DNA of 64,000 nt from an uncultured Clostridia bacterium (GTDB lineage Bacteria > Bacillota > Clostridia > Christensenellales > UBA1242). Positions 5,259 to 57,663 of the stretch are shown here, in pieces; position 1 is the first letter of the stretch, and each line of letters opens with the position of its first letter. The stretch is taken from NCBI GenBank assembly GCA_944383685.1, contig CALWQM010000015.1:57570-121569 (forward strand), read 5' to 3'. The notes beneath the pieces are model-generated. The model did not search any database and was not told the origin of the DNA. It saw only the letters and a program-made list of their open reading frames with translations. Both the position numbers and the translations under genes were made by a program.

Positions 5259-5774
5259 ATTTTTAAGGAACAATTAATCAATGAACAAATCACCGCAAAA
5301 GAAGTTCGCTTGATTGGGGCGGATGGTGAGCAACTTGGCATTATGCCAGTTGAAAAAGCAAGAGAAATTGCAGAAAGTGAAGGTCTTGACCTTGTTTTGA
5401 TGTCAGGAAACACAAATCCTGCCGTATGTAAAATTATGGACTATGGCAAGTTTAAGTTCGACAGCATTAAAAAGGAAAAGGAATTAAGAAAAAATCAAAA
5501 AATAATTGAATTGAAAGAAATTCAGTTATCTATGAGAATTGACCAATATCACATTAATTTCAAACTTAAAAATGCTCAAAAGATTTTGCAAGAAGGTGAT
5601 AAGGTTAAGGTTTCTCTTAGAATGAAAGGCAGAGAACAAGCATATTCAAAGAATGCTATTGAAGTTGTCAATAATTTTGTTGAGCAACTTGCTGACTATG
5701 GTTCAGTTGACAAGAAACCAGAAATTATGGGACGCAATGTCGTTGTTGTAATCAACCCAAAAAAGACTAAATAA
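5259..5774 (+). CDS. infC: Translation initiation factor IF-3 (ATT start)
   Basis: AAAGGAG SD (5243..5249), 9 nt, then in-frame ATT at 5259. The product begins (M)FKEQLINEQITAKEVRLIGADGEQLG, as in other IF-3 N-termini. The track ATG at 5220 lies inside the terminator hairpin. Confidence 0.85.
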   Translation: MFKEQLINEQITAKEVRLIGADGEQLGIMPVEKAREIAESEGLDLVLMSGNTNPAVCKIMDYGKFKFDSIKKEKELRKNQKIIELKEIQLSMRIDQYHINFKLKNAQKILQEGDKVKVSLRMKGREQAYSKNAIEVVNNFVEQLADYGSVDKKPEIMGRNVVVVINPKKTK

Positions 5775-5787
5775 AAGGAGAGAGGTT

Positions 5788-5982
5788 ATGCCTAAGCAAA
5801 AAACACACAGTGGCGTTAAAAAACGTTTTTCACTTACAGCAACAGGAAAAGTTAAGTTTGCTAGACCAAACAAAGGTCACTTTTTAACAAACAAATCTAA
5901 AAGTCGTAAAAGAAAACTTAGAAAGGGTTCTTATATTGCAGGTAAAAATGCACGCAATATCAAGACACTTCTTTGCAAGTAA
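5788..5982 (+). CDS. rpmI: 50S ribosomal protein L35
   Basis: 64-aa MPKQKTHSGVKKRF... sequence with a GGAGAGAGG SD. Confidence 0.95.
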   Translation: MPKQKTHSGVKKRFSLTATGKVKFARPNKGHFLTNKSKSRKRKLRKGSYIAGKNARNIKTLLCK

Positions 5983-5995
5983 TTAGGAGGAAAGC

Positions 5996-6343
5996 ATGAG
6001 AATTAAAAGAGGTGTAAACGCAGTTAAAAAGCGTAGAAAAATCTTAAAGGCTGCAAAAGGATACTTTGGTGCAAAAAGTAAACTTTATAGAACTGCAAGA
6101 GAACAAGTTATGAAGTCTGGTCAATATGCTTATATTGGCAGAAAACAAAAGAAAAGAGATTTCCGTGCTCTTTGGATTACAAGAATCAATGCAGCTTGCA
6201 GACAAAACGATATTTCATATTCAAGATTTATTGCTGGTCTTAAAAAAGCAAATGTTTCTTTAAACAGAAAAGTTCTTGCAGATATTGCAGTAAGAGAACC
6301 TGAAACTTTCGCTGAACTTGTTGCAACAGCAAAGAAGGCTTAA
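5996..6343 (+). CDS. rplT: 50S ribosomal protein L20
   Basis: 115-aa [25 protein letters not shown]... sequence with an AGGAGG SD. Confidence 0.95.
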
Positions 6344-7065
6344 TGGAAAGGGCGAGCAAAAGTTTAATATCTAACCTTAAAAAGCAAAAACGAGATAAGT
6401 CTTTGCTTTTTTTGGATAATGTCAAAATAATTAAAGACGCAATCAAAAATTCATCAATCAAGGTTGAATGTGTTTTAACAAGCCTTGATGAACTTCCTTT
6501 TGTCACTGATGCAAAAACATATCGTGTTGATGAGAAAACCATTGAAATGCTTGCAGACACCAAAACACCACAGAAGGTATTATGCATTGCATACTATAAT
6601 CAACATGTTGTGGTTGTGCCAAAATCTAATTTTTTGGTTTTAGATTCCCTTCAAGACCCAGGAAATGTTGGCACACTGATAAGAACAGCAAAAGCATGCG
6701 GAATGGAAAGTGTGTTTTTGGTGGATAGTGTAAGTTTAACAAATTCAAAACTTATTCGCAGTTCTGTTGGTGCAGTTTTTAATGAAAATGTTTATTCTGT
6801 ATCTAAAAGTGAATTTATCCAAATGGTTAAAGAAAACAAATTACAACTTGTTAAGTGTGATATGAATGGAGAAAACATTTTTAAATATAAACCTAATGGG
6901 GTTGTGGGAGTTGTGATTGGAAACGAAGGGCAAGGTGTGAGTGATGAAATTGCTTCACTATGCCAAACATCCATTTCAATACCAATGAAAGAAGGCATTG
7001 AAAGTTTAAATGCTGGTGTAAGTGGTTCAATAATCATGTATCAAATTTCAAAGGATAATTTTTGA
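6343..7065 (+). CDS. TrmH/SpoU-family RNA 2'-O-methyltransferase (RlmB/YsgA-like)
   Basis: LQDPGNVGTLIRTA, GNEGQGVS and IPM..GIESLNAGVSGSI motifs. TAATG overlap with rplT; same position as ysgA in Bacillus. Confidence 0.8.
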   Translation: MERASKSLISNLKKQKRDKSLLFLDNVKIIKDAIKNSSIKVECVLTSLDELPFVTDAKTYRVDEKTIEMLADTKTPQKVLCIAYYNQHVVVVPKSNFLVLDSLQDPGNVGTLIRTAKACGMESVFLVDSVSLTNSKLIRSSVGAVFNENVYSVSKSEFIQMVKENKLQLVKCDMNGENIFKYKPNGVVGVVIGNEGQGVSDEIASLCQTSISIPMKEGIESLNAGVSGSIIMYQISKDNF

Positions 7066-7235
7066 TTTTAGTTTTAATATATTTTAACTTTTAAAACTTT
7101 AAAAAAGCAAACAAAATAGTTTTTATTCTATTTATTTTGAAATCTTAACAAATTGTTATATAATACTTATTAAGAAGTTTATATAATTTTTGTATTTACA
7201 TTAATTAAAAAATTTAGAAATTAGGGAGGTAATGT

Positions 7236-7964
7236 ATGTCAGGACATTCAAAGTGGCACAATATTCAGGCAAGAAAAGGTAAATCAGACGCAGCAAGAGG
7301 TAAAATTTTCACAAAAATAGGTCGTGAAATTGCTGTTGCTGTTAAGGCAGGTGGTGCTGACCCTAATTCAAACAGCAAACTTCGTGATATTATTTCAAAG
7401 GCAAAGCAAAACAATATGCCAAATGACAATATTGAACGTTCAATCAAAAAAGCTTCTGGCGAACTTAGTGGAGTTAATTACGAAGCAATCACATATGAAG
7501 GATATGGTGTTGGTGGTTCAGCTGTTATTGTTGAATGTTTAACCGACAACAAAAACAGAACAGCAGGGGATGTTCGTCATGCTTTTGATAAGCACGGTGG
7601 CAGTTTGGGTTCAACAAATTGCGTGTCATACCTTTTCAAAAGAAAGGGTGTTGTGATTGTGGCAGATGTTAAGGATGTTGACACTTTAATGATGGATGCA
7701 CTTGATTTGGGTGCCGTTGATGTTTTTGAAGATGAAGACACTGTTCAAGTTATTACTGAGCCAAATGAACACACAAAAATGCAAGATGAGTTAACAAACA
7801 AGGGGTATAATGTTGTTTCTGCTGACACTGAACTTGTTCCAGACACTTATGTTGATTTAACAGAAGAACAAGTTGGTAAGTTCAACAGAATGGTTGATGC
7901 ACTTGAAGATTTGGACGATGTTCAAGAAGTTTACCACAATGTAAATCTTCCAGATGACGAATAA
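7236..7964 (+). CDS. yebC: YebC/PmpR-family transcriptional regulator
   Basis: 242-aa [15 protein letters not shown]... sequence with a GGGAGG SD. Confidence 0.9.
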
Positions 7965-7980
7965 TATTTTTAGCAAAATA
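7963..7980. repeat. TATTTT-TAGC-AAAATA palindromic motif, copy 2
   Basis: AATATTTTTAGCAAAATA overlaps the yebC stop codon. Confidence 0.45.
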
Positions 7981-7981
7981 A

Positions 7982-8013
7982 ATTGGTTTACAAATATGTA
8001 AATCAATTTTTTT
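7982..8013 (+). terminator. Intrinsic terminator after yebC
   Basis: ATTGGTTTACA / TGTAAATCAAT stem (one G-U pair), 4-nt loop, T7 run. Confidence 0.6.
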
Positions 8014-8141
8014 AATTTCTTGAAAGTAAGTTTTTTTCTTAAAAAACAAAATAAAATTACAAAAATTACGACTATGAATATATACTTTTTTTATAATTTC
8101 GATATAAAATATTAAATATATAAAAAAAATCCACAAAAAAG

Positions 8142-8169
8142 TTGACTCGGTGGGGGTATTTGCTAAAAT
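8142..8169 (+). promoter_or_regulatory. Promoter of the GLUG-repeat surface protein gene
   Basis: TTGACT (8142..8147), 16-nt spacer containing G5, TGcTAAAAT (8161..8169). An SD-bearing 58-nt leader (GAGGTGG) follows. Confidence 0.55.
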
Positions 8170-8182
8170 ATTTTTAGAAATT
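8157..8182. repeat. TATTTT-TAGC-AAAATA palindromic motif, copy 3 (composite)
   Basis: TATTTGCTAAAATATT is the reverse orientation with arms one nt shorter. It overlaps the -10 of the surface protein promoter and is followed by AATATTTTTAGAAA. Confidence 0.4.
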
Positions 8183-8227
8183 AATATATTTTTTGCCTTG
8201 GATTTATAATATTTAAGAGGTGGGACT

Positions 8228-13096: not shown

Positions 13097-14836
13097 TTAT
13101 TTTGCATATTTTTTATAAACAAATTTTGTTAAATAATAATTGATTGGTAAAATCACAAGTAATGCATAAATTGGAACTAAAATTGAGGTTAAATATTGAA
13201 CCATTGTTTCTGCTTGCATGCCACAACAAATGTTAATAACAAAAACGATAACACTTGCCAAAATGAAGACGGCCCAATTAGTTATTGCATTATATCTTTG
13301 TGTTGCCTTTCGACTTACTGTGCATTTATATTGTATTAATGAGATAATAACATAAATTAAAAACAATGCTGGAATGGTGTAAAATAAGAAATTCGACGAA
13401 GCCATTAAATGATTTGTTCCGCTAATTATTCCGTAAAAAATAGCACAGCCTACACCAACTAATCCGAACAAAATTACTGAGATAATAAGATTTAAAAGAT
13501 TTGTGTTATGAACTCTTTGAACATAAGTCCTTTTATATTCTTTAAATTCAATTCCGCGTTCATGATAATAACCCTTCAATGATTCAAAATCTGCAAAGGA
13601 GACAACAGGCTGAGCTTTTTGAGCATAGTAGGTTGCTTTCTGTTCAACATTAGGAGAACTTTGAATTTGCTTACTTGCAATTTCCTTTTCCTTCTTCTTT
13701 TCGTTGATTTTTGACATCATGTCTGTATAAGTTGGTTCCAAATTTGAATCTCTTATCGGTGCAGGCAAGTTATCATCCGAAACATTGATTTCAATATTTG
13801 GAGGAGTGATTTTTCTTTGATATGGAATATGTTCATCAGCAATTTTTGGCTCGGTAATTAAAACTGCGTCATCTTTTTCTTCTACAATTTGTTTTTTATC
13901 TTCAAAAATTGGTGTTGAAACCCTATTGGTTTGTATGAACTGCGCTTCATTTTGTTGAGGTTTAAGATAAATTCCATCATCTTTATTTACTGAATTTTCA
14001 GTTTCTTCTTTTTTATTAAACAAATTTGCATAAACACTTCTATCAAAATTGTTTTGCTTTGTTTGGAGTATGGACTCTTTTAAGCTTTGAATTTTAGATT
14101 TAAAATCTTCATCATTTGGCTTTTGTTCATAAACAACTGACATTTCAATTTGATTGTCTGAAAAGCTTTTTCTATTCCTATATTTTTTTAATTCGCTTGA
14201 AGTGTCATACAATTTTTTGTTTTGCTCAATTTGATAAGGGGTGAGGGTTTCATTTTCGTTTAAAAATTTTGCATCATCCTTTTTAGGTTCTTCCTTTTCA
14301 AAACTGAAAACATCCTTATTGGCACTTTCTTGTTTTTCAGGTTGTTCATAAGAAAAGAAATCAATTTGGTTATCTGCAACTTCTGGTGTATCTTCTTTTG
14401 GAACTGGTTTTTCTTCTTGTTTAGGTTGTTTTGCATAATCAAACAAATTTTTTTGTTCCAGAAAGATTGGTTTATGTTCAAAATCACTCTCACTTGTTTC
14501 AATGTTAGTTTCAAATTCCACTTCTTTGTTTTCATCAGCAGAGAAAGAAATATTTTTAAATTCCTTAGCAAGCAAATTTAAACTTTCCTTTCCTTCATCT
14601 GTGAGGGCATAATAATGGCGTTTTCCACCAAATTCACTTTCTCCCCAAAAGGAAGAAGAAACAAGGCCTTTTTTTTCTAGTCTTGTTAAGCACGAATAAA
14701 GAGTCGGCTTTTTAAGGATATAGCCGCCATTTGTTTTTTTAGCAATAAATTCAATAATTTCCAAACCATATTTTGAACCGTCTGCAAGCGAATCAAGGAT
14801 AAGATATTGGACTTGACCATTGGAATTAAATGCCAT
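13097..14836 (-). CDS. PadR-family winged-helix regulator fused to a long low-complexity linker and a C-terminal 4-TM domain
   Basis: ATG at 14836 follows an AGGAGG SD. The N-terminus YLILDSLADGSKYGLEIIEFI...LYSCLTRLEKKGLV...KRHYYALTDEG is PadR-like. About 340 aa are E/K/Q/N-rich, then come four hydrophobic helices. Confidence 0.7.
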   Translation of the reverse strand: MAFNSNGQVQYLILDSLADGSKYGLEIIEFIAKKTNGGYILKKPTLYSCLTRLEKKGLVSSSFWGESEFGGKRHYYALTDEGKESLNLLAKEFKNISFSADENKEVEFETNIETSESDFEHKPIFLEQKNLFDYAKQPKQEEKPVPKEDTPEVADNQIDFFSYEQPEKQESANKDVFSFEKEEPKKDDAKFLNENETLTPYQIEQNKKLYDTSSELKKYRNRKSFSDNQIEMSVVYEQKPNDEDFKSKIQSLKESILQTKQNNFDRSVYANLFNKKEETENSVNKDDGIYLKPQQNEAQFIQTNRVSTPIFEDKKQIVEEKDDAVLITEPKIADEHIPYQRKITPPNIEINVSDDNLPAPIRDSNLEPTYTDMMSKINEKKKEKEIASKQIQSSPNVEQKATYYAQKAQPVVSFADFESLKGYYHERGIEFKEYKRTYVQRVHNTNLLNLIISVILFGLVGVGCAIFYGIISGTNHLMASSNFLFYTIPALFLIYVIISLIQYKCTVSRKATQRYNAITNWAVFILASVIVFVINICCGMQAETMVQYLTSILVPIYALLVILPINYYLTKFVYKKYAK

Positions 14837-14904
14837 ATTTCCTCCTAAACCCTTTCTTATAATTAAATTATAAATCTTATAAATATATTTGTCAAACAAA
14901 ATTT

Positions 14905-15074: not shown

Positions 15075-15704
15075 ATGAATATTGAAATAATACGAGAAAA
15101 AAGAAAAACATTATTACTTAAAATTGTTGAAAATGGCAAAATTTTGATTAAAGCACCTTTAAGACTTAGTGATGCAAAAATCAATGAGTTTATTGCATCA
15201 AAGCAAAAGTGGCTTAATAGTAAATTTCAAAAAATGGAATCTCTTGATGAGTTTGCAAATTCATTTGATTTTGATAAATTTATTTACGAATTTGCTAAGC
15301 CTGTTATGGAAACAAAAAACATAAGCTTAGATTATGAAAGCTTAAATGATGCTAAGAAACTTAAAGCAATAAAAAAGCAATATCTTGAAATGTTCAACAC
15401 ACTTAAATTTAGGGCGTATGAGTTTGCAGAAAAATATGGCTTTAAAGTTGAACAAGTGTCTTATATGGCTTCAATATATAAGTGGGGTTCATTTAGCAAT
15501 AAAGGTGAAATGAAATTAAATTACAAACTTATCATTTTGCCACACGAGTTAATTGATTATGTTATCATTCATGAACTTTGTCACAGCAAACACATGAATC
15601 ATAAGCCTCAATTTTGGAAAGAGGTTGAAAAATTTTGTCCTAATTACAAAGATATGAGAAAAGAAATGAAGAATTATTCTTTCATTCTTAAAACTGATTT
15701 TTAA
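15075..15704 (+). CDS. YgjP-like (DUF45) zinc metallopeptidase
   Basis: WGSFSNKGEMKLNYKLIILPHELIDYVIIHELCHSKHMNHKPQFW contains HExxH in the typical DUF45 context. Confidence 0.75.
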   Translation: MNIEIIREKRKTLLLKIVENGKILIKAPLRLSDAKINEFIASKQKWLNSKFQKMESLDEFANSFDFDKFIYEFAKPVMETKNISLDYESLNDAKKLKAIKKQYLEMFNTLKFRAYEFAEKYGFKVEQVSYMASIYKWGSFSNKGEMKLNYKLIILPHELIDYVIIHELCHSKHMNHKPQFWKEVEKFCPNYKDMRKEMKNYSFILKTDF

Positions 15705-17071: not shown

Positions 17072-17191
17072 TGTTTTAAAGGAAAATTATTTTATTAATT
17101 AGCAATTTTTCTTCAAGCCTTAAAGAAATATAAAGGGAAACTTGTCTTATAAATGTCCAATGTGATCGCTTTTAATATTTATTAAATTTCT

Positions 17192-17219
17192 TTGCGAAAA
17201 CAAAAAAATTTGATATAAT
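17192..17219 (+). promoter_or_regulatory. Promoter of the Xer recombinase gene (apparently leaderless)
   Basis: TTGCGA (17192..17197), 16-nt spacer, TGaTATAAT (17211..17219), then 6 nt (AAGAAC) to the ATG at 17226. No SD. Confidence 0.55.
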
Positions 17220-17225
17220 AAGAAC

Positions 17226-18272
17226 ATGAAAACTTTATCATACTTTGAAAAAAGGGACTTAGTCAATATGGAAAAAATTGGAAGTTATCTCAGCGAACTT
17301 CCAGAGTATTGTTATGACTTTTTCACAGGTATTGAAATTACCACTTCAAGTTTGACACGTTTGAATTATGCAATGGATTTATCCATCTTTTTTGACTATA
17401 TTTCAAAGTTCATTTTAAAAAAGGACAAAAAAGAAATCACATTAAAAGATTTGGACACTCTTGAAGCGAGAGATATTGAAAGTTATTTGTCATATCTCAC
17501 CTTTTATAAAGTTGATGATAAAGCTTTTAAAAATACAGAAAATGGGAAGGCAAGAAAACTTGCAAGTGTGAGAAGTTTTTTTAAATATCTTTTCAACCAT
17601 GATTTAATAAGCAAAAATGTTGTCAGCAAAGTTCCAACTCCAAAACTTCACAACAAGGGTATTATTAGGTTGGAGGGGAATGAAATTGAGAAAATGCTTG
17701 ATGCAGTGAATGACCCAACAACATTCACACAAAGACAGAAAAATTACAACAAAAACACAAGAATACGTGATAATGCTATTGTCACACTTTTTCTTGGAAC
17801 GGGCATAAGAGTTAGCGAGCTTGTTGGACTTAATGTGGAAGATTTTGATTTTTCACAAAATGCCTTTAAAGTGACAAGAAAAGGTGGAAATCAAACAATA
17901 CTTTACTATCCAAATGAAGTTAAGTACGCAGTTGAAGAATGGCTTACAATTCGCAAAACACTTCCAATAAATGAAGATGAGCACGCATTATTCCTTTCTT
18001 TGCAAAACAGGCGCATTTGCACAAGGGCGGTTGAAAATCTTGTGAAAAAGTTTGCAAGGGAAAGCACGCCACTGAAAAATATTTCACCTCACAAACTTCG
18101 TTCAACCTTTGGCACAAATTTGTATAGGGAAACAAATGACATCTATATTGTTGCTGATGTTTTGGGGCATAAGGATGTTAACACAACCAAAAAACACTAT
18201 GCGGCAATAAGTGAAGATATGCGTAAAGGTGTTGCCAAAAAGGTGAAAATTGGCAACAGCAATTTTGATTGA
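17226..18272 (+). CDS. Tyrosine site-specific recombinase, Xer family (XerS-like architecture)
   Basis: 348 aa. Catalytic-region motifs are GIRVSELVGL, VTRKGGN, HKLRSTFGTNLY and LGHKDVNTTKKHY (R..H-R-H..Y). The N-terminal half (LPEYCYDFF...SSLTRLNYAMDLSIFFDYI) resembles streptococcal XerS from memory. Confidence 0.75.
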   Translation: MKTLSYFEKRDLVNMEKIGSYLSELPEYCYDFFTGIEITTSSLTRLNYAMDLSIFFDYISKFILKKDKKEITLKDLDTLEARDIESYLSYLTFYKVDDKAFKNTENGKARKLASVRSFFKYLFNHDLISKNVVSKVPTPKLHNKGIIRLEGNEIEKMLDAVNDPTTFTQRQKNYNKNTRIRDNAIVTLFLGTGIRVSELVGLNVEDFDFSQNAFKVTRKGGNQTILYYPNEVKYAVEEWLTIRKTLPINEDEHALFLSLQNRRICTRAVENLVKKFARESTPLKNISPHKLRSTFGTNLYRETNDIYIVADVLGHKDVNTTKKHYAAISEDMRKGVAKKVKIGNSNFD

Positions 18273-23868: not shown

Positions 23869-24948
23869 ATGGATAATTACAAAAAAATTTTAATTTTTCT
23901 TTCAAAATTCGAACTTTCCAATAAGAAATTGGAAACTATTATGCAGATTGTTGAAGATAAAAACATAAAAAACATTGAAGAACTTTCAAATGACGGCGAC
24001 ATAATGGACAGTTTGTCTTCAACAGAATATCATGAAATCTTAAAAAATTGTGATGAAAGATTGCTGGCTTCAATGATAACTAATCTTGAAAAATCTAATG
24101 TTAAAGTGCTGACAAAAAATGATGAAGAATATCCAGAAAGTTTAATTGACCTTCCTGATGTTCCAATGATTTTGTTTGCAAAAGGAAATTTAGATTTATT
24201 GAAAGAAAAAGCTATTTCCATTGTTGGCACAAGAATGCCAACCAATTATGGAAGATTTGTGACAGAAAAATTTGCTGAAACACTGGCAAAGGCAGGGGTT
24301 GTTATTGTCAGTGGGCTTGCTTATGGAGTGGATGCAATTTCTCACAAAAAAGCATTGGAAGTTGGCGGAAAAACCATTGCAGTTTTAGGTGGCGGTTTCA
24401 ATCACATTTACCCAGAAGCACACACAAATCTTGCAAATGAAATTGCAGAAAAAGGGTTAATTCTAAGCGAATATGCACCATTTATTAAGCCTACAAAATT
24501 TTCCTTCCCAAGAAGAAACCGAATTATTGCAGGGCTTTCACTTGGAACACTTATAACAGAGGCAAGCAAGAAAAGTGGCACAATTCACACAAAAGAATAC
24601 GCACTTACGTATGGCAAAGATGTGTTCGCGGTTCCAGGAAATATCAATTCTCCAAAAAGCGAACTTACAAATATGCTTATTAAATCTGCACAAGCAGAGT
24701 GCGTTTTAAGTGGTAATGATATTTTGGAATATTATGGAATATCGACACAAAATGAGAAAAAGAAAATGATTTCCCTCAATTTTGAGGAGCAAACAATCAT
24801 AAACTTACTTCAAAACGGCGAGCAAGATTTTGATTATTTAGCAAAAAATTCCAATATTTCTGTAAATAATTTGAATAGTTATTTGACAACTTTGGAAATT
24901 CGTGGTTTAATTAAAAGAATGCCAGCGAAGACTTACATGTTAAATTAA
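23869..24948 (+). CDS. dprA: DNA processing protein DprA
   Basis: IVGTRMPTNYG...SGLAYGVDAISHKKAL Rossmann-like DprA core with a C-terminal winged-helix-like tail. Confidence 0.9.
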   Translation: MDNYKKILIFLSKFELSNKKLETIMQIVEDKNIKNIEELSNDGDIMDSLSSTEYHEILKNCDERLLASMITNLEKSNVKVLTKNDEEYPESLIDLPDVPMILFAKGNLDLLKEKAISIVGTRMPTNYGRFVTEKFAETLAKAGVVIVSGLAYGVDAISHKKALEVGGKTIAVLGGGFNHIYPEAHTNLANEIAEKGLILSEYAPFIKPTKFSFPRRNRIIAGLSLGTLITEASKKSGTIHTKEYALTYGKDVFAVPGNINSPKSELTNMLIKSAQAECVLSGNDILEYYGISTQNEKKKMISLNFEEQTIINLLQNGEQDFDYLAKNSNISVNNLNSYLTTLEIRGLIKRMPAKTYMLN

Positions 24949-24961
24949 AAAGGAGATTAAT

Positions 24962-27040
24962 TTGAAACTTGTTGTTATCGAAGCCCCAGCAAAAAGGGAA
25001 ACACTGAAAAAATATTTAGGACCTGGTTACGAAGTTTTTGCAACAAAAGGTCACATAAGAGATTTACCTGTTAAATCATTTGCTATTGATATAAATAATA
25101 ATTTTGAACCTCATTATGAAAATAAACCAGATAAAAAAGACCTTATTAACGAACTTAAACATAAGGCAGATAAAGCGGACCAAGTTTTAATCGCAACCGA
25201 CCCGGATAGAGAAGGGGAGGCTATTTCTTGGCACATTGCCCATGTTTTGGGACTTGACCCAAACAAAAAATGCCGTATACAGTTCAACGAAATTTCAAAA
25301 AATGCTGTTTTAAAAGCACTTGATAACCCAAGAGCCATTGACTTAAATTTGGTCAATGCCCAACAGGCACGCCGTGTTATGGATAGAATTGTGGGATACA
25401 AACTTTCACCAATTATATCAAAAAAAGTTGCGCCAAAACTTTCAGCAGGGAGGGTGCAGTCAGTTGCTTTGAAACTTGTGGTTGACAGAGAAAAAGAGAT
25501 TGAAAACTTTAAGCCAGAAGAATATTGGACTGTTACCGCTTTTCATGAAAAAGATAAGATTGCTTTTAAATCAACTCTCCAAACTTATAAAAATAAGAAG
25601 ATTAAAATTGCAAACAAGGAAGAAGTTGAAAAAGCTTTATCAGTTATTAAACAAAGTGATTTTATCGTTAGTTCTGTTAAGAAAAGTAAAACAAAATCTC
25701 ATGCACCTGCGCCATTCACAACAAGCACAATGCAACAAGATGCATTAAATAAACTTGGCATGAGCCTTAAAAGAACAACTCAATCAGCACAAGAACTTTA
25801 TGAGGGGGTTGAAGTTAAGGGTGAAGGTAAAATTGCGCTTATCACATATATAAGAACAGACTCCACAAGAGTTAGCGAAGATGCACAAAAGGCTTGTAGG
25901 CAATTTATTGAAGAAAAGTATGGCAAAAACTATCTTCCAGCAAAACCAAACATTTATGCAACAAAGAAAAATGCACAAGACGCGCATGAAGCAATAAGAC
26001 CTATTTCCATGCAAATAACACCAGAAATGGTGCAAGACAGTTTGTCAAAAGATAACTATAAACTTTATAAACTTATCTATGAAAGATTTTTGTCAAGCCA
26101 AATGAATGAAGCAGAATATAGCAACACTGTTATCAGCATTGATGCAAGTGACTATGGCTTCAAAGCAAATGGTAAAATACTTGAATTTCCAGGATACACT
26201 GCTGTTTATAAAGAATTTGTGGATGAAGATAAAGACAAAAAACAAGATGCATCAAAATTACCTCAAATTGAAGAAAACGAAAAATTGGAAGTTAAAGACA
26301 TCAAAGAAGAACAGAAATTCACAAAACCTCCTGTTCGTTACACAGAAGCAAGCCTTGTTAAAGCAATGGAAGAAAAGGGAATTGGGCGTCCTGCAACTTA
26401 TGCTGCAACTGTAACCATTTTAACCGCAAGAAATTATGCTGAAAAAGAAGGGAAATATCTTGTTCCAACTGAACTTGGAAGAAAAATCACCGAATACCTT
26501 GAAAAGTTTTTCAGCGGGGTTATCAACGTTAAATTCACTGCACACATGGAAAACCGCCTTGACGATATTGCAGAAGATAAAGATGATTGGCATGATGTTA
26601 TTAACAGTTTCTGGAATGGGTTTAAGGGACTTTTGGAAAAAGCAGATTCCTCATCTGTTTCCATGAAAAGTGAACCTATTGAAACTGATGTTGTCTGTGA
26701 TAAATGTGGGCATAAAATGCTTTTGAGAGAGGGAAGATTTGGCAAGTTCTTAGGCTGTTCAAATTTTCCTAAATGCAAAAACATTATGCCATACAAGACA
26801 GAAGAAGAAAAGAAACCTGTTTCAAAATGTCCTATGTGCGGAAAAAATGTTTATGCTCTTAAAACAAAAAGAGGAAAAACTTTCTATGCCTGTGAAGACA
26901 GAAATGGTTGCAATTTCATGAGTTGGGATATTCCAACAGGTGAGATGTGCCCAAAGTGCGGAAAATACCTTATAAAGAAAGGGAAAATCATAAAGTGTTC
27001 AAGTTGTGATTATAAGGTTGATAACAACAAGGAAAACTAA
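24962..27040 (+). CDS. topA: DNA topoisomerase I
   Basis: 692 aa. TTG start follows an AAGGAG SD. Toprim domain (ATDPDREGEAISWH) and C-terminal Cys4 zinc ribbons. Confidence 0.95.
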   Translation: MKLVVIEAPAKRETLKKYLGPGYEVFATKGHIRDLPVKSFAIDINNNFEPHYENKPDKKDLINELKHKADKADQVLIATDPDREGEAISWHIAHVLGLDPNKKCRIQFNEISKNAVLKALDNPRAIDLNLVNAQQARRVMDRIVGYKLSPIISKKVAPKLSAGRVQSVALKLVVDREKEIENFKPEEYWTVTAFHEKDKIAFKSTLQTYKNKKIKIANKEEVEKALSVIKQSDFIVSSVKKSKTKSHAPAPFTTSTMQQDALNKLGMSLKRTTQSAQELYEGVEVKGEGKIALITYIRTDSTRVSEDAQKACRQFIEEKYGKNYLPAKPNIYATKKNAQDAHEAIRPISMQITPEMVQDSLSKDNYKLYKLIYERFLSSQMNEAEYSNTVISIDASDYGFKANGKILEFPGYTAVYKEFVDEDKDKKQDASKLPQIEENEKLEVKDIKEEQKFTKPPVRYTEASLVKAMEEKGIGRPATYAATVTILTARNYAEKEGKYLVPTELGRKITEYLEKFFSGVINVKFTAHMENRLDDIAEDKDDWHDVINSFWNGFKGLLEKADSSSVSMKSEPIETDVVCDKCGHKMLLREGRFGKFLGCSNFPKCKNIMPYKTEEEKKPVSKCPMCGKNVYALKTKRGKTFYACEDRNGCNFMSWDIPTGEMCPKCGKYLIKKGKIIKCSSCDYKVDNNKEN

Positions 27041-27120
27041 ATTAACATTTAAAATTAATAATAAAATTCAATATTAATTTTGGTTTATTTAAAATAAAAT
27101 TTTGGTTTTGAGGTGAATAT

Positions 27121-28311
27121 TTGAAGTCTGTAAACTTAGATTTAAAATTAAACAAAAGACTTATTAAAATTGTTGGCGGTGGACTTACTGGGATTGAAAC
27201 TGCATATATTTGTGCAAAAAACGGATACAGGGTTCACATCTTTAACAAGCCTCAAAATGAACTCACATATTTTGACAAAGAAGAACCTTTTGCAAATATT
27301 TTGCAAGAGGAACTTTTTAATTTTTCAAGCCCTACATATTTAACAAGCCAAAGGATGGGCGAAAATATATTGAAACTTGATAAAAATTTTATTGGCCTTA
27401 TGCGTGAAAAACTTAAAGAATTTCCAAATGTTTCATATATTGAAAGCGAAATTGACGAATTAAATCCAAGAGAAATAACTTTGCTTGCAACAGGAAATAA
27501 CACCACAAACAAACTTTTAGATGATTTAACAAAATATATTGGCGAAAGAAAAATTCAGTATTATAGCCCTGGCGAAATTGCCTTTAAAAACATTAAAGAA
27601 GAAAATTTGTTTCATGATAAAGATAATAACTATCATTTAAATTTAACAGAAAGCGAATATGCCATATTAAAAAACAAGATGTGTAAATTTTTAAATGATT
27701 ATGAAGTTAACAATCTTTTGGGTCAACAAATAAGCGGGGAAAGTCTTGCAAGAAATGAAGCATTAAGAACAGCAATATTTAGACCGATATATAATGAAAA
27801 TTGCAAAGCTTATGCCTCGCTTAAATTGCGAAAACATGAAGATATTTATTATTTAACTGAATTTTTCACAGCCCTTTCAAATGAGGAACAAAAGGAAATT
27901 TTCAGTGGTATATCTGCTCTTGACGGTGCAGAATTTGTAAACTTTGGAAAAATATATAAAAGGACTTATCTTTCAAGTGCAATGTGCGTAAACAACTTTT
28001 TACAATTTAAAAATGAAGAAAACTTTTTTGTCTGTGGCGGACTTTTAGGGGTGGAAGGTGTTATGGAAAGCCTGCTCACCGCAAATTACGTGGCTTATAA
28101 CCTTATGAACATGGCAGAGGGAAAGCCTTTGCAAGAAATTACCAATTTTTCATGCACAAAACTTCTAATAGATAAATTATTACAAAAAAATGTGTTAAAT
28201 CATAGGCTTTTAAGTTTTGACTATGATATAATAAATGATGAGAATGGCAAAAATATAGATACTTCTGCCGTTCTTAAATTTAAAGAAAAATTTTATGGAA
28301 AGTATTTTTAA
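27121..28311 (+). CDS. Divergent TrmFO/Gid-like flavoprotein (probable loss of catalytic cysteines)
   Basis: TTG start follows a GAGGTG SD. VGGGLTGIETA dinucleotide-binding motif and FFVCGGLLGVEGVMES (compare FFAGQ.TGVEGYVES). Position after topA matches trmFO; see findings for the missing Cys motifs. Confidence 0.55.
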   Translation: MKSVNLDLKLNKRLIKIVGGGLTGIETAYICAKNGYRVHIFNKPQNELTYFDKEEPFANILQEELFNFSSPTYLTSQRMGENILKLDKNFIGLMREKLKEFPNVSYIESEIDELNPREITLLATGNNTTNKLLDDLTKYIGERKIQYYSPGEIAFKNIKEENLFHDKDNNYHLNLTESEYAILKNKMCKFLNDYEVNNLLGQQISGESLARNEALRTAIFRPIYNENCKAYASLKLRKHEDIYYLTEFFTALSNEEQKEIFSGISALDGAEFVNFGKIYKRTYLSSAMCVNNFLQFKNEENFFVCGGLLGVEGVMESLLTANYVAYNLMNMAEGKPLQEITNFSCTKLLIDKLLQKNVLNHRLLSFDYDIINDENGKNIDTSAVLKFKEKFYGKYF

Positions 28312-28381
28312 GGATAAAGTGCTTTAAACAAAACTTTTTCAAAAATAAAAATAATTTCAATTTATAAAAGTGAGGATAAGA

Positions 28382-29686
28382 ATGAACTATACACCAAAAC
28401 AAATTGTCAGCGAACTTGATAAATATATTGTGGGACAAGCAAAGGCAAAAAGGGCGGTTGCTGTTGCATTAAGAAATCGTTATCGCCGTTCTCATTTGCC
28501 AGAAGAAATAAGAGATGAAATAACACCAAAAAACATCATCATGAGTGGGCCAACAGGTGTTGGTAAAACAGAGATTGCAAGACGTCTTGCTAAACTTGTG
28601 GGCGCACCTTTTGTTAAAGTTGAAGCGACCAAATACACCGAAGTTGGATATGTTGGCCGTGATGTTGAAAGCATGGTAAGAGATTTGGTTGAAGTTGCTG
28701 TTAGAATGGTTAAGGATAAAAAGAAAAAAGATGTTGAAGATAAGGTTATGCCAATTGTTGAACAAAAACTTATTGATGCACTTTTCCAAAATAGACGTGT
28801 CACAACTTTGGAAGTTAAAAGAGAAGATTTGGAAAATGAACTTCACAGCAATAAATTTGAAGATGAAATTATTGAAGTTTCCGTGCTTGACAGCCCAAAA
28901 CCAATTATGGCATTTGGAAGTGGTGAAATCAATTTGGGCTCTATGTTCGACAGCCTTCAACCACCAAAGCACAAAAAGAAGAAGATGAGTGTGCGTCATG
29001 CCAGAGACCTCTTACTTCAAGAAGAAACAGAAAAAATCATTGATATGGATAATGTCAATGAAGAAGCCATTTCACTTGCAGAAGAACAAGGTATTATTTT
29101 CATTGATGAAATCGATAAAATTATTGGAAAAAGCCAAGCAACAAGCAGTGCTGACGTTTCAAGAGAGGGGGTTCAAAGAGATATTCTTCCAATTGTTGAA
29201 GGAAGCACTGTGCCAACCAAATATGGCAATGTTAAAACAGATTTCATTCTTTTCATCGCAGCAGGGGCTTTCCATTTGGCTAAAATGGAAGATATGATTC
29301 CAGAACTTCAAGGTCGTTTTCCAATTAGAGTCAGCCTTGAAAGTTTAACTCAAAAAGACTTCAAGCAAATATTAACAGCACCAAAAAATGCGGTAACCTT
29401 GCAATATGCCAACCTTTTGAAGGTTGATAATATTGACCTAAAATTCACTGATGATGCACTTGACGAAATTGCCACAATTGCTGCAAATGAAAACGAAATT
29501 GAAGATTTGGGAGCAAGACGTCTTCACACAATTATGGAATTGCTTTTGGAAGATATTTCTTTCAATGCAACTGGGGAACATCCAATGACAACAGTTGAGA
29601 TTGACAGAACTTATGTTCAAAAAGCTTATAAAGATAAAAGTAAGCGTGCTACCGAAAAAATTAAAATGGGCTTTAGGGCTTCTTAA
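28382..29686 (+). CDS. hslU: HslU (ClpY) AAA+ ATPase, without an adjacent hslV
   Basis: ATG at 28382 follows a [57 protein letters not shown] and [10 protein letters not shown] motifs. Confidence 0.85.
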
Positions 29687-32502: not shown

Positions 32503-32556
32503 TAAAAAAAGTTATTTTTTGCCATAAAAATAATTTGATAAAATATTAAATAATTA

Positions 32557-32592
32557 AAAAAGCACATAAACCAATACTATGTGCTTTTTTAT
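32557..32592 (+). terminator. Intrinsic terminator after nifU
   Basis: AAAAGCACATA / TATGTGCTTTT stem, 9-nt loop, T-run. Confidence 0.7.
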
Positions 32593-32963
32593 ATTTCAAA
32601 TTTTTTGGGGTGGTAGTTTACTTAAAAATTTTCATACATAAAATTATTAATTATGTAATTTATACTGGCTGGTGGTATGGTTTAATTTTATATAATAAAT
32701 TTTGTTCTAAAATGCGTTCACATACACGGAATAATTAAACTTTTAAAATTTTCCTTGAATTTAACATTATTATACAAAGATGAAAATTTCATAGTAGTAT
32801 GCATAAATATACATAAATTTAGACTCAAATATTTTTTAAATTTAGTTAAATCTTGTTTTAAACTTACAGAAAGAATAAATAAAATGTTTATAAAAATTAT
32901 GTCAATCACATTAATAAAAAAGTTAGAAGAAAACATCAATAATATTTAATTATTATGAGCTAA

Positions 32964-33125
32964 GGTATTATGCGCATAATACCACAATATTTTGTTTAAA
33001 ATTATGTGATAATACACCATATTTTGAATATCTATTCGCAAAACCTGTCTTTTGCGAATAGATTGTAAACCACTTTTAATCATAATCACCCAATTTTTTA
33101 CATAAATAAGCCCACATTTTTTATT
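32964..33125. repeat. Repeat array flanking the candidate dif
   Basis: Perfect 20-bp palindrome GGTATTATGCGCATAATACC (32964..32983). Four same-orientation ~20-bp units, consensus roughly CATAATACCACAATATTTT: 32972..32993, 33006..33025, 33079..33099, 33100..33122. Confidence 0.5.
33030..33063. other. Candidate chromosome dimer resolution site (dif-like 14-6-14 perfect palindrome)
   Basis: ATCTATTCGCAAAA CCTGTC TTTTGCGAATAGAT. It is 530 and 330 nt from the nearest gene ends, has no flanking U-tract, and sits in the convergent strand-switch gap. Confidence 0.5.
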
Positions 33126-33377
33126 TAGTTTTAGAGCAAATTTAACCAAAAATCACATGACTTTTGAAGAATTTTTTCTTAATTTACCCTATAAAAATTT
33201 CGTATAAAAGCAGCAATTTTTATTTAAAATTTATTGCATAAAATTTACAAAATATAAATAATTATAAATTTATATTTGATCGCCCACTAAATTTGATTGT
33301 AAAATGACATGACATCTAGCCCACCCTGCACCCCATTTTTTAAAAAGGAGGTATTTATCCTAGAATTTAAATAAAAG

Positions 33378-33405
33378 AAAGATAAGTCTTTACTTATCTT
33401 TTTTT
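33378..33405. terminator. Bidirectional terminator at the IMPase gene stop
   Basis: AAAGATAAGT / ACTTATCTTT stem with T-runs on both strands. The stop codon lies in the loop. Confidence 0.55.
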
Positions 33406-56793: not shown

Positions 56794-57663
56794 ATGAAAT
56801 ATTTTGAAATTAAAGTCGCGGGCTTAAAAAAAGAAGAAAAATTATATACCTTTTTAAAACAAAATGGGTTTTCCGAGCATTATCTTAAACAATTAAGAAA
56901 CACAAAGGATGCCATAAAAATAAATTATAGAACCGAAAATATTAATGTTGTAATAAATAATGATGACATCATTCAAATTGCCTCAAACCCATTTAAGGCA
57001 ACTGAAATTGAACTTATTAATAAACCTCTTGATATTGTTTATGAAGACGACTATTTTTTGCTTGTCAATAAACCACCAATGCTGGCGACAATGCCTTCAC
57101 GTTCTCATTATAAAGACAACCTTGCTGGTATGGTCTGCAATTACATGAAAGATAAAGACGAAAATTACACTTTAAGAGTGTTCAACCGCCTGGACCGCGA
57201 AGCATGCGGACTGATATTAATATCCAAAAATGCTGTTGTTCATCAAAAAGTGAAAGATATTGAAAAAGAATATTATGCAATTTGCCATGGAACAATTAAG
57301 AAAAAAATCACTGTGAAAGAACCAATTTTAACAATTGTTAACAATGGCATAAACGAAATGAAAAGGGTTTGTTCCCCGCTTGGACAGAGTGCCGAAACCA
57401 CCTTTATACCAATTAAAAACTTTAATAACAAAACCCTTTTAAAGGTCAAAATATTTAAAGGCAGAACTCATCAAATTCGCCTGCATGCCTCCCATATTTC
57501 TCACCCTCTTATTGGCGATAAATTATATGGAATACCGGACGATTTCTATCACACATATCTTTGTCTAAAAAAGATAAATTTTCACTTTGACATAACAAAT
57601 CAAGACTATTCTTTTGAAATCAATCTTCCACCTGAATTTGAAAAGGTTTTAAAAAATTCTTAA
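56794..57663 (+). CDS. RluA-family pseudouridine synthase
   Basis: 289 aa with NRLDREACGLILISK (catalytic Asp context) and GRTHQIRLH motifs. Confidence 0.85.
   Translation: MKYFEIKVAGLKKEEKLYTFLKQNGFSEHYLKQLRNTKDAIKINYRTENINVVINNDDIIQIASNPFKATEIELINKPLDIVYEDDYFLLVNKPPMLATMPSRSHYKDNLAGMVCNYMKDKDENYTLRVFNRLDREACGLILISKNAVVHQKVKDIEKEYYAICHGTIKKKITVKEPILTIVNNGINEMKRVCSPLGQSAETTFIPIKNFNNKTLLKVKIFKGRTHQIRLHASHISHPLIGDKLYGIPDDFYHTYLCLKKINFHFDITNQDYSFEINLPPEFEKVLKNS

Follow-up and report, generated by a model that had tools for sequence, protein, structure and literature searches.

The forward strand of the window, i.e., the whole 64-kb stretch of DNA analyzed in this study, carries at 17226–18272 the coding sequence of a tyrosine recombinase (Xer-type, from an XerS-related family), assigned from the open reading frame, Pfam and NCBIfam matches, and an alignment of orthologues. 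The 348-amino-acid product matches the Pfam domains Phage_integrase (PF00589, 1e-33) and, in its N-terminal part, the SAM-like SAM_1 (PF02899). The complete R-K-H-R-H-Y active site that is generally expected of Xer recombinases is present, and its residues R195, K219, H289, R292, H315, and Y325 are invariant across about 33 aligned orthologues of 45–60% identity (alignment A1). Reading frame and invariant catalytic columns agree with a preliminary description of the locus, which had reported a tyrosine recombinase of this length with an intact catalytic set. A structure predicted with 20 close homologues as input reached a mean pLDDT of 59, with the catalytic domain poorly modeled. No second tyrosine recombinase is encoded within the 64-kb window according to tblastn.

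A start of translation upstream of 17226 is excluded because of an in-frame TGA at 17211–17213, 5' of the recombinase ATG. M15 (17268) was considered as the true start and ruled out, as N-terminal residues before M15 are conserved across orthologues; since residues 5–20 (xYFxxRxxxNxxKI) are kept throughout, the start is placed at M1. Many database entries of recombinase relatives (P0056–P0101) are shortened to 331 or 338 amino acids, apparently due to gene callers that skipped the first ATG, which lacks a Shine-Dalgarno (SD) motif, and placed the start at M15. At locus L212, the full N-terminus is encoded 5' of the called start (L212:9959–10000), behind TGgTATAAT and 6 nt.

The promoter of the recombinase gene (17192–17225, forward strand), read from its sequence and from a layout kept in relatives, probably gives rise to a leaderless mRNA. 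A −35-like TTGCGA (17192–17197) is separated by 16 nt from an extended −10 element, TGaTATAAT (17211–17219), which is followed by the six nucleotides "aagaac" and the ATG at 17226; inspection of the sequence before this ATG revealed no SD motif. These elements are those given in the preliminary description, and its suggestion of a leaderless transcript gains weight from relatives, in which the −10 box likewise ends 6 nt before the ATG: the arrangement TGnTATAAT-6 nt-ATG is conserved at L206, L208, L210, L211, and L212, while the remaining intergenic DNA has diverged beyond recognition. Across the family, an assigned start is available for 116 orthologues, of which 27 lack an SD and show a −10 hexamer a few nucleotides (in most cases exactly 6) before the start codon, and 77 carry an SD instead. 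A loose test for the presence of a −10 box and absence of an SD has a background of about 19% in this AT-rich window (10 of 52 ORFs), so that the weight of the argument for a leaderless mRNA rests on conservation. Given the 6-nt gap and standard promoter geometry, we infer that transcription starts (+1) on the A of the recombinase ATG. Two other genes on the forward strand have a leaderless-looking layout, with TGgTAAAAT and no SD, at 56794–57663 (6 nt to the ATG) and at 15075–15704 (8 nt to the ATG), and this genome may commonly use leaderless starts.

A candidate dif site lies at 33030–33063, 14.7 kb downstream of the recombinase gene. It consists of 34 bp, ATCTATTCGCAAAA-CCTGTC-TTTTGCGAATAGAT, and forms a perfect palindrome with 14-bp arms and a 6-bp spacer; no other sequence in the window matches it with three or fewer mismatches. 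The palindrome is located in a terminus-type intergenic gap of about 890 bp (32503–33389), toward which the genes converge: genes lie on the forward strand up to 32502 and on the reverse strand from 33390, with a nifU-like gene (+) to the left and an IMPase-like gene (−) to the right of the gap. GC skew is positive to about 32 kb and negative beyond, and the cumulative G−C maximum at 32704 is about 330 bp from the palindrome. Due to this polarity of both skew and gene orientation, we place the replication terminus at 32.5–33.4 kb. The candidate thus has the features by which a dif site is recognized, i.e., an AT-rich, intergenic inverted repeat with a spacer of 6–8 bp at a skew shift, in single copy as far as the window is concerned. 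A XerCD-type dif was not found in the window, where the best match to the dif of B. subtilis or E. coli has 9 mismatches in 28 positions, as in shuffled sequence. A search for the canonical dif with a partial pattern gave 22 matches in the window, compared with 14 expected, none of them convincing. KOPS-like words directed toward the palindrome were sought and discarded, as the top words (TTGAAGA, 65:10) are purine-rich words of the coding strand that are inseparable from the bias in gene orientation.

The gap harbors additional repeats. Next to the candidate dif, at 32965–32984 and 33008–33017, are a perfect palindrome of 20 bp, GGTATTATGCGCATAATACC, and the motif GCATAATAC(C/A). In the window and its nearest relatives (L051, L062, L072, L091, L098, and L029), this motif is present in one to three copies on one side of dif. 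It is also found 5' of the PadR-like gene at 14899 and may for this reason be a mere −10-like promoter element. That gene (13097–14899, reverse strand) encodes a protein of 600 amino acids with an N-terminal PadR domain, a long low-complexity middle part, and C-terminal hydrophobic segments, and is conserved beside YgjP-like and spoIVB genes at L208, L210, and L211. A hairpin with a 15-bp stem and A/T runs on both sides follows nifU at 32555–32591 and looks like a bidirectional terminator; a weak, sub-threshold match to the Rfam family Thr_leader overlaps it and is probably spurious. Otherwise, Rfam returned nothing meaningful for the terminus gap.

The octamer TTTGCGAA at 17191–17198 (forward strand) overlaps the −35 element of the recombinase promoter and corresponds to eight of the nine bases of the dif right-arm core. 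The preliminary description had reported it at this position as shared with the palindrome, and it is indeed found in both arms of the latter. It had also cautioned that such a match could be fortuitous, and the count in the window is at chance level (six copies vs. 4.0 expected, with six or more in 21 of 100 shuffles). The five closest relatives share the −10 box but lack the octamer, which at its position in the window may represent a relic, a weak operator, or a chance occurrence. In the wider family, the whole dif is contained in 26 of 101 dereplicated promoters, and an isolated half-site occurs in 17 of the other 75 (vs. a background of 6.8% for the remaining genes of these loci; p = 9e-6). 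Many relatives have the right arm of dif directly next to the −10 box, or the complete dif at a distance of 5–50 bp from the start, so that binding of the recombinase would block the promoter, and at L056, L122, and L133 the full right arm is kept in a fixed register beside the −10 box. The enrichment of half-sites in promoters indicates that autoregulation, or else the persistence of former dif sites as relics, is a real trait of the family. The earlier idea of autoregulation is speculative as far as the octamer in the window is concerned, given its chance-level frequency and its absence from the closest relatives, although half-site and dif are found in family promoters more often than expected by chance. 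We consider it rather unlikely that this octamer functions as a half-site by which the recombinase shuts down its own promoter in this genome. Its overlap with the −35 element, the frequency of whole and half-sites in family promoters, and the three loci with a fixed register would be in line with such a function. However, the match comprises only eight of nine core bases without the conserved outer TAG, it is placed in another register (16 nt from the −10 box vs. 10 nt in the conserved cases), a −35 element is dispensable with an extended −10, and both the chance-level count and the five relatives that lack the octamer despite the same −10 box speak against it.

Among the NCBIfam models, XerS matches the whole recombinase best (183.5 bits, model positions 6–356 of 360), followed by XerC (163.6 bits), archaeal XerA (160.2 bits), and XerD (148.8 bits), with all scores below the curated cut-offs. 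The XerS equivalog model (NF003462) requires 267 bits, which is reached neither by the window protein nor by its Christensenella orthologue (183.2 bits), and the scores for XerC and XerD compare with cut-offs of 335.15 (TIGR02224) and 329.6 bits (TIGR02225), respectively. For the N-terminal half (residues 1–145), XerS leads by a modest margin (51.4 bits vs. 38.1 for XerC and 33.6 for XerD), whereas XerS and XerA score about alike for the C-terminal half. The view that the N-terminal half resembles XerS rather than XerC/XerD is thus supported at sub-cut-off level, XerS being the top model for this half as well as for the whole protein. Phage integrase families of PHROGs score 119 bits at most, compared with 183 bits for XerS. 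The comparison of Xer and phage models proposed at the outset accordingly ranks XerS first, and the affinity to phage or ICE integrases that would have spoken against an Xer function was not observed, given that the Xer models outscore PHROGs and that the neighboring genes are housekeeping genes. The nearest solved structure by sequence is XerD, and XerH can be aligned over its full length, though weakly; the family profile yields 58.7 bits to XerH and 116 bits to XerD. Since XerS is the best curated model and its cut-off is nevertheless not reached, the protein is, judged by these profiles, an Xer-type recombinase nearest to XerS but outside the XerS equivalog, i.e., a member of a related but distinct family.

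To follow the site beyond the window, we scanned one genome per species (GTDB) for the 18-nt core TTCGCAAAA-N6-TTTTGCGAA. The core was found in the genomes of at least 120 species (at least 120 loci), almost all of them Clostridia among the matches listed, including Christensenella, Catabacter, Lachnospiraceae, Oscillospiraceae, Defluviitaleaceae, and Halanaerobiales. As the pattern was taken from the window, conservation of the core is partly built into the search, and independent evidence comes from position, flanks, and neighbors. Among the matches listed, 104 of 120 sites are intergenic, neighboring genes are convergent in 31 cases and divergent in 4, and skew is higher in the left than in the right flank in 60 of the 65 loci whose two flanks each span at least 1.5 kb (p = 5e-13). 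The outer pentamers, which flank the searched core, are perfectly complementary between the arms in 71 of the 120 listed sites, in 18 variants (AACTA, ATCTA, ATTTA, ATCAC, and others), compared with 9.7 sites when partners are shuffled. Arms that co-vary in this way are expected if a single protein reads both, and the pattern points to one protein binding both dif arms. Spacers are also conserved, with the asymmetric sequence nnTGTn in 37 of 67 distinct sites; a fixed spacer orientation relative to the gene was sought and not found, as both orientations occur. Closed genomes with the site include those of Christensenella sp. Marseille-P2438 (LT700187.1) and Christensenella minuta. In a closed Christensenella chromosome, the site is located at about 2,270,631 of 2,560,186, a raw coordinate that is not relative to the origin.

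Gene and site are linked in the family. Of the 120 listed loci selected by site, 37 also encode a full-length orthologue (45–60% identity) in the 8-kb block that contains the site, often 5–160 bp from it, e.g., in three cultured Christensenella species. The reverse test started from 80 metagenome loci chosen by protein alone, with up to 10 kb per side and equal search space on both sides: the site was present in 52 of the 80, always upstream of the gene and never downstream, and in many of them within 20–200 bp. Where at least 3 kb of upstream sequence was available, 32 of 49 loci had the site within 3 kb. The closest clade differs in this respect, as relatives of the window protein with 76–86% identity have no site within 10 kb of the gene. 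In the relatives with 82% and 86% identity the gene is found between spoIVB and tig-clpP-clpX, as in the window, whereas at L212 (82% identity) the neighborhood is different, and in those with 76% and 78% identity (L210 and L211) it lies on the strand opposite to the adjacent spoIVB (at L210 also opposite to tig). This suggests repeated small rearrangements of the recombinase gene alone in this clade. Where dif is identical or almost identical to that of the window, the genes nifS-nifU adjoin the site, as they do in the window. Because gene and site are not adjacent in this genome, their pairing rests on relatives; the distance of 14.7 kb matches the roughly 15 kb noted earlier as a difference from streptococcal xerS.

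The core is not exclusive to the family of the window protein, as it is also adjoined by a second set of recombinases, here called class B, which lie directly behind TTCGCAAAA-N6-TTTTGCGAA at L010, L060, L103, L113, L112, L102, L028, L017, and L107. Class B proteins are 27–36% identical to the window protein and XerC/XerD/XerA-like in NCBIfam; in their loci the site is located 16–47 bp upstream of the ATG, spacers are AT-rich, an SD follows, and skew is of the terminus type. Judging from these arrangements, two distinct Xer families may act on one and the same dif core. The occurrence of XerC/D-like recombinases beside the same core palindrome in other Clostridia, together with the fact that 64 kb cover only part of the genome, could be taken to mean that the window protein is one partner of a two-recombinase system, in which it cooperates, at the palindrome or another dif, with a second, XerC/D-like Xer whose gene lies beyond the window. 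We regard this as improbable, because perfectly symmetric, co-varying arms are unexpected for two different binding proteins, the two recombinase families were together in no locus among those selected by site, and a canonical dif is absent from the window. The position usual for codV in Firmicutes, between trmFO and hslU, is also free of any recombinase gene: in the window cluster dprA-topA-trmFO (a partial GIDA match)-hslU (23869–29686), the gap between trmFO and hslU measures 58 bp, and neither codV nor hslV was found in this interval, which in Bacillus is the seat of both codV (xerC) and hslV (B. subtilis map).

Mobile elements inserted in the site suggest that it recombines in nature. L150 and L151 represent one lineage with flanks that are 97% identical, and L151 is longer by 6.44 kb due to an insertion inside the site (L151:137–6579 vs. 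L150:2878–2913), with the crossover in the spacer. A 20-bp stretch beginning with the third spacer base (TGTG, the right arm, and CC) is found at both ends of the insertion. It is the contrast between the occupied site of L151 and the empty site of L150 that points, at the level of sequence, to probable natural recombination at the dif-like site. The L151 element encodes a rolling-circle initiator (Rep) of the filamentous-phage G2P type, and no integrase-family match was found among its scanned ORFs of more than 100 amino acids; related elements encode Zot-like proteins (L146:600–7693 and L154:~5700–8190). The CTX phage and LME-1 borrow the host Xer system for integration, and by analogy the L151 element follows the pattern of such elements. 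Filamentous-phage-like elements of 6–7 kb also occupy the dif-like site of relatives at L121–L125, and element ends show two dif-like sequences about 100 bp apart, which is reminiscent of the CTX phage. Five orthologues of the recombinase are found on contigs labeled viral in IMG/VR, a label that we ascribe to small filamentous-phage-like elements inserted at the neighboring dif.

An insertion with its crossover inside the spacer is difficult to reconcile with the proposal that the palindrome serves as operator for a transcription factor, or as RNA hairpin or terminator, and that the recombinase has another role, e.g., in DNA inversion. Such a proposal could draw on the perfect 14-bp stem and on the overlap of the palindrome with the recombinase promoter in many relatives. 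However, no T-run follows the palindrome and the terminator scan does not call it, it matches no Rfam family, it is conserved as a sequence with the asymmetric spacer nnTGTn, and its position tracks skew switches and no particular gene, so that we consider this explanation very unlikely. Least credible of all is that the protein is the integrase of a phage, ICE, or other mobile element and the palindrome either unrelated or an attachment site: the match to the Pfam Phage_integrase domain and the five orthologues on viral-labeled contigs would fit, but Xer models score far above phage integrase families (183 vs. 119 bits), the housekeeping neighborhood spoIVB-xer-tig-clpP-clpX is preserved in relatives of 82% and 86% identity, the recombinase gene has no phage genes as neighbors in the window, the site is located at skew switches, and the viral labels are explained by small filamentous-phage-like elements at the neighboring dif.

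Resolution of chromosome dimers by XerCD is textbook knowledge. XerC/XerD (CodV/RipX) share fold, catalytic set, and terminus role with the window recombinase, but their 28-bp dif has two kinds of arm, whereas the arms of the window site are identical. Few single-recombinase exceptions are known, namely XerS, XerH, XerA, and XerL; these are the systems covered by reviews and surveys, none of which mentions Clostridia, and our literature search, with most subscription journals outside its reach, found no description of the site sequence or of a Clostridia Xer system.

The closest counterpart is XerS/difSL of streptococci and lactococci (Le Bourgeois 2007, PMC1914069; Nolivos 2010, PMC2965235). 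XerS is also about 350 amino acids long and thus longer than XerC/D, difSL is likewise found at the terminus, and its inner arms, TTTCCGAAAA...TTTTCTTGAAA, resemble TTCGCAAAA...TTTTGCGAA of the window site. The xerS gene lies just downstream of its site, as it does in the Clostridia family (52 of 80 loci), although not in the window, where 14.7 kb separate the two. In XerS/difSL, a single recombinase is sufficient and recombination requires FtsK. The systems differ in that difSL is a 31-bp site whose unequal arms enclose a central region of 11 bp, compared with a 34-bp perfect palindrome and a 6-bp spacer here, and in host range (streptococci and lactococci vs. Clostridia). XerH/difH of Helicobacter and Campylobacter (Carnoy and Roten 2009, PMC2731167; Bebel 2016, PMC5241119) also combines a single recombinase of similar length with a site near the gene, as in the Clostridia family, and the difH consensus, TGAAAAC---A-TTTTCAAA, has the same AAAA-6 bp-TTTT center as the window site, a center shared by difSL. 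However, sequence similarity to XerH is weak (58.7 bits with the family profile), and the outer arms and the phylum differ. XerL/dif of Legionellales (PMC9765430) again relies on a single recombinase; its dif arms are long uninterrupted inverted repeats and its gene can be far from the site, both as observed here, and its site is used by an integrating mobile element, as in the Clostridia relatives. By its description, XerL is set apart by phylum and site sequence.

Taken together, family linkage, terminus position, co-varying arms, and the phage-like insertion lend good support to the earlier proposal that the recombinase is cognate to the candidate dif. In our assessment, the gene quite probably encodes the chromosome-dimer-resolution recombinase of this genome, that of an uncultured Clostridia bacterium; the enzyme would act alone on the 34-bp palindrome at the terminus. 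Identical subunits would occupy the symmetric arms, of 14 bp each, of the 33030–33063 palindrome, and strand exchange across the 6-bp spacer would be carried out by Tyr325 with R195, K219, H289, R292, and H315, converting a chromosome dimer into two monomers where the replication arms meet. A translocase of the FtsK/SpoIIIE type, on which the reaction would depend, probably brings two dif copies into contact at the septum, and one recombinase would suffice. Transcription from the extended −10 element, with its predicted start at the A of the ATG, would yield a leaderless mRNA. Most relatives have the site a short distance 5' of the gene, often overlapping the promoter, and this arrangement would make autoregulation possible; in the present lineage, the gene appears to have relocated to the interval between spoIVB and tig, at a distance of 14.7 kb from the site.

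For the family as a whole, the chances seem to us about even that these genes and sites constitute an undescribed single-recombinase Xer/dif system extending across several orders of Clostridia (Christensenellales, relatives of Lachnospiraceae and Oscillospiraceae, Defluviitaleaceae, and Halanaerobiales). Such a system would be characterized by a perfectly palindromic 34-bp dif, WWCTATTCGCAAAA-nnTGTn-TTTTGCGAATAGWW, which would typically overlap the promoter of the recombinase gene and thereby provide built-in autoregulation, by an often leaderless mRNA, and by integrase-less filamentous phages that integrate at the site. The pairing of the core with an XerC/D-like family as well would then reflect a swap of the recombinase with the site kept. 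If this is true, a large share of gut and rumen Clostridia, Christensenella among them, resolves dimers by yet another variant that has an unusually symmetric site. This would provide a simple marker of the replication terminus for metagenome-assembled genomes and account for the integration of small filamentous phages in these bacteria. The annotation of thousands of "integrase" genes would be corrected, including N-termini truncated at a missed leaderless start, and a compact one-protein, one-site recombination tool would become available for anaerobes that are hard to engineer.
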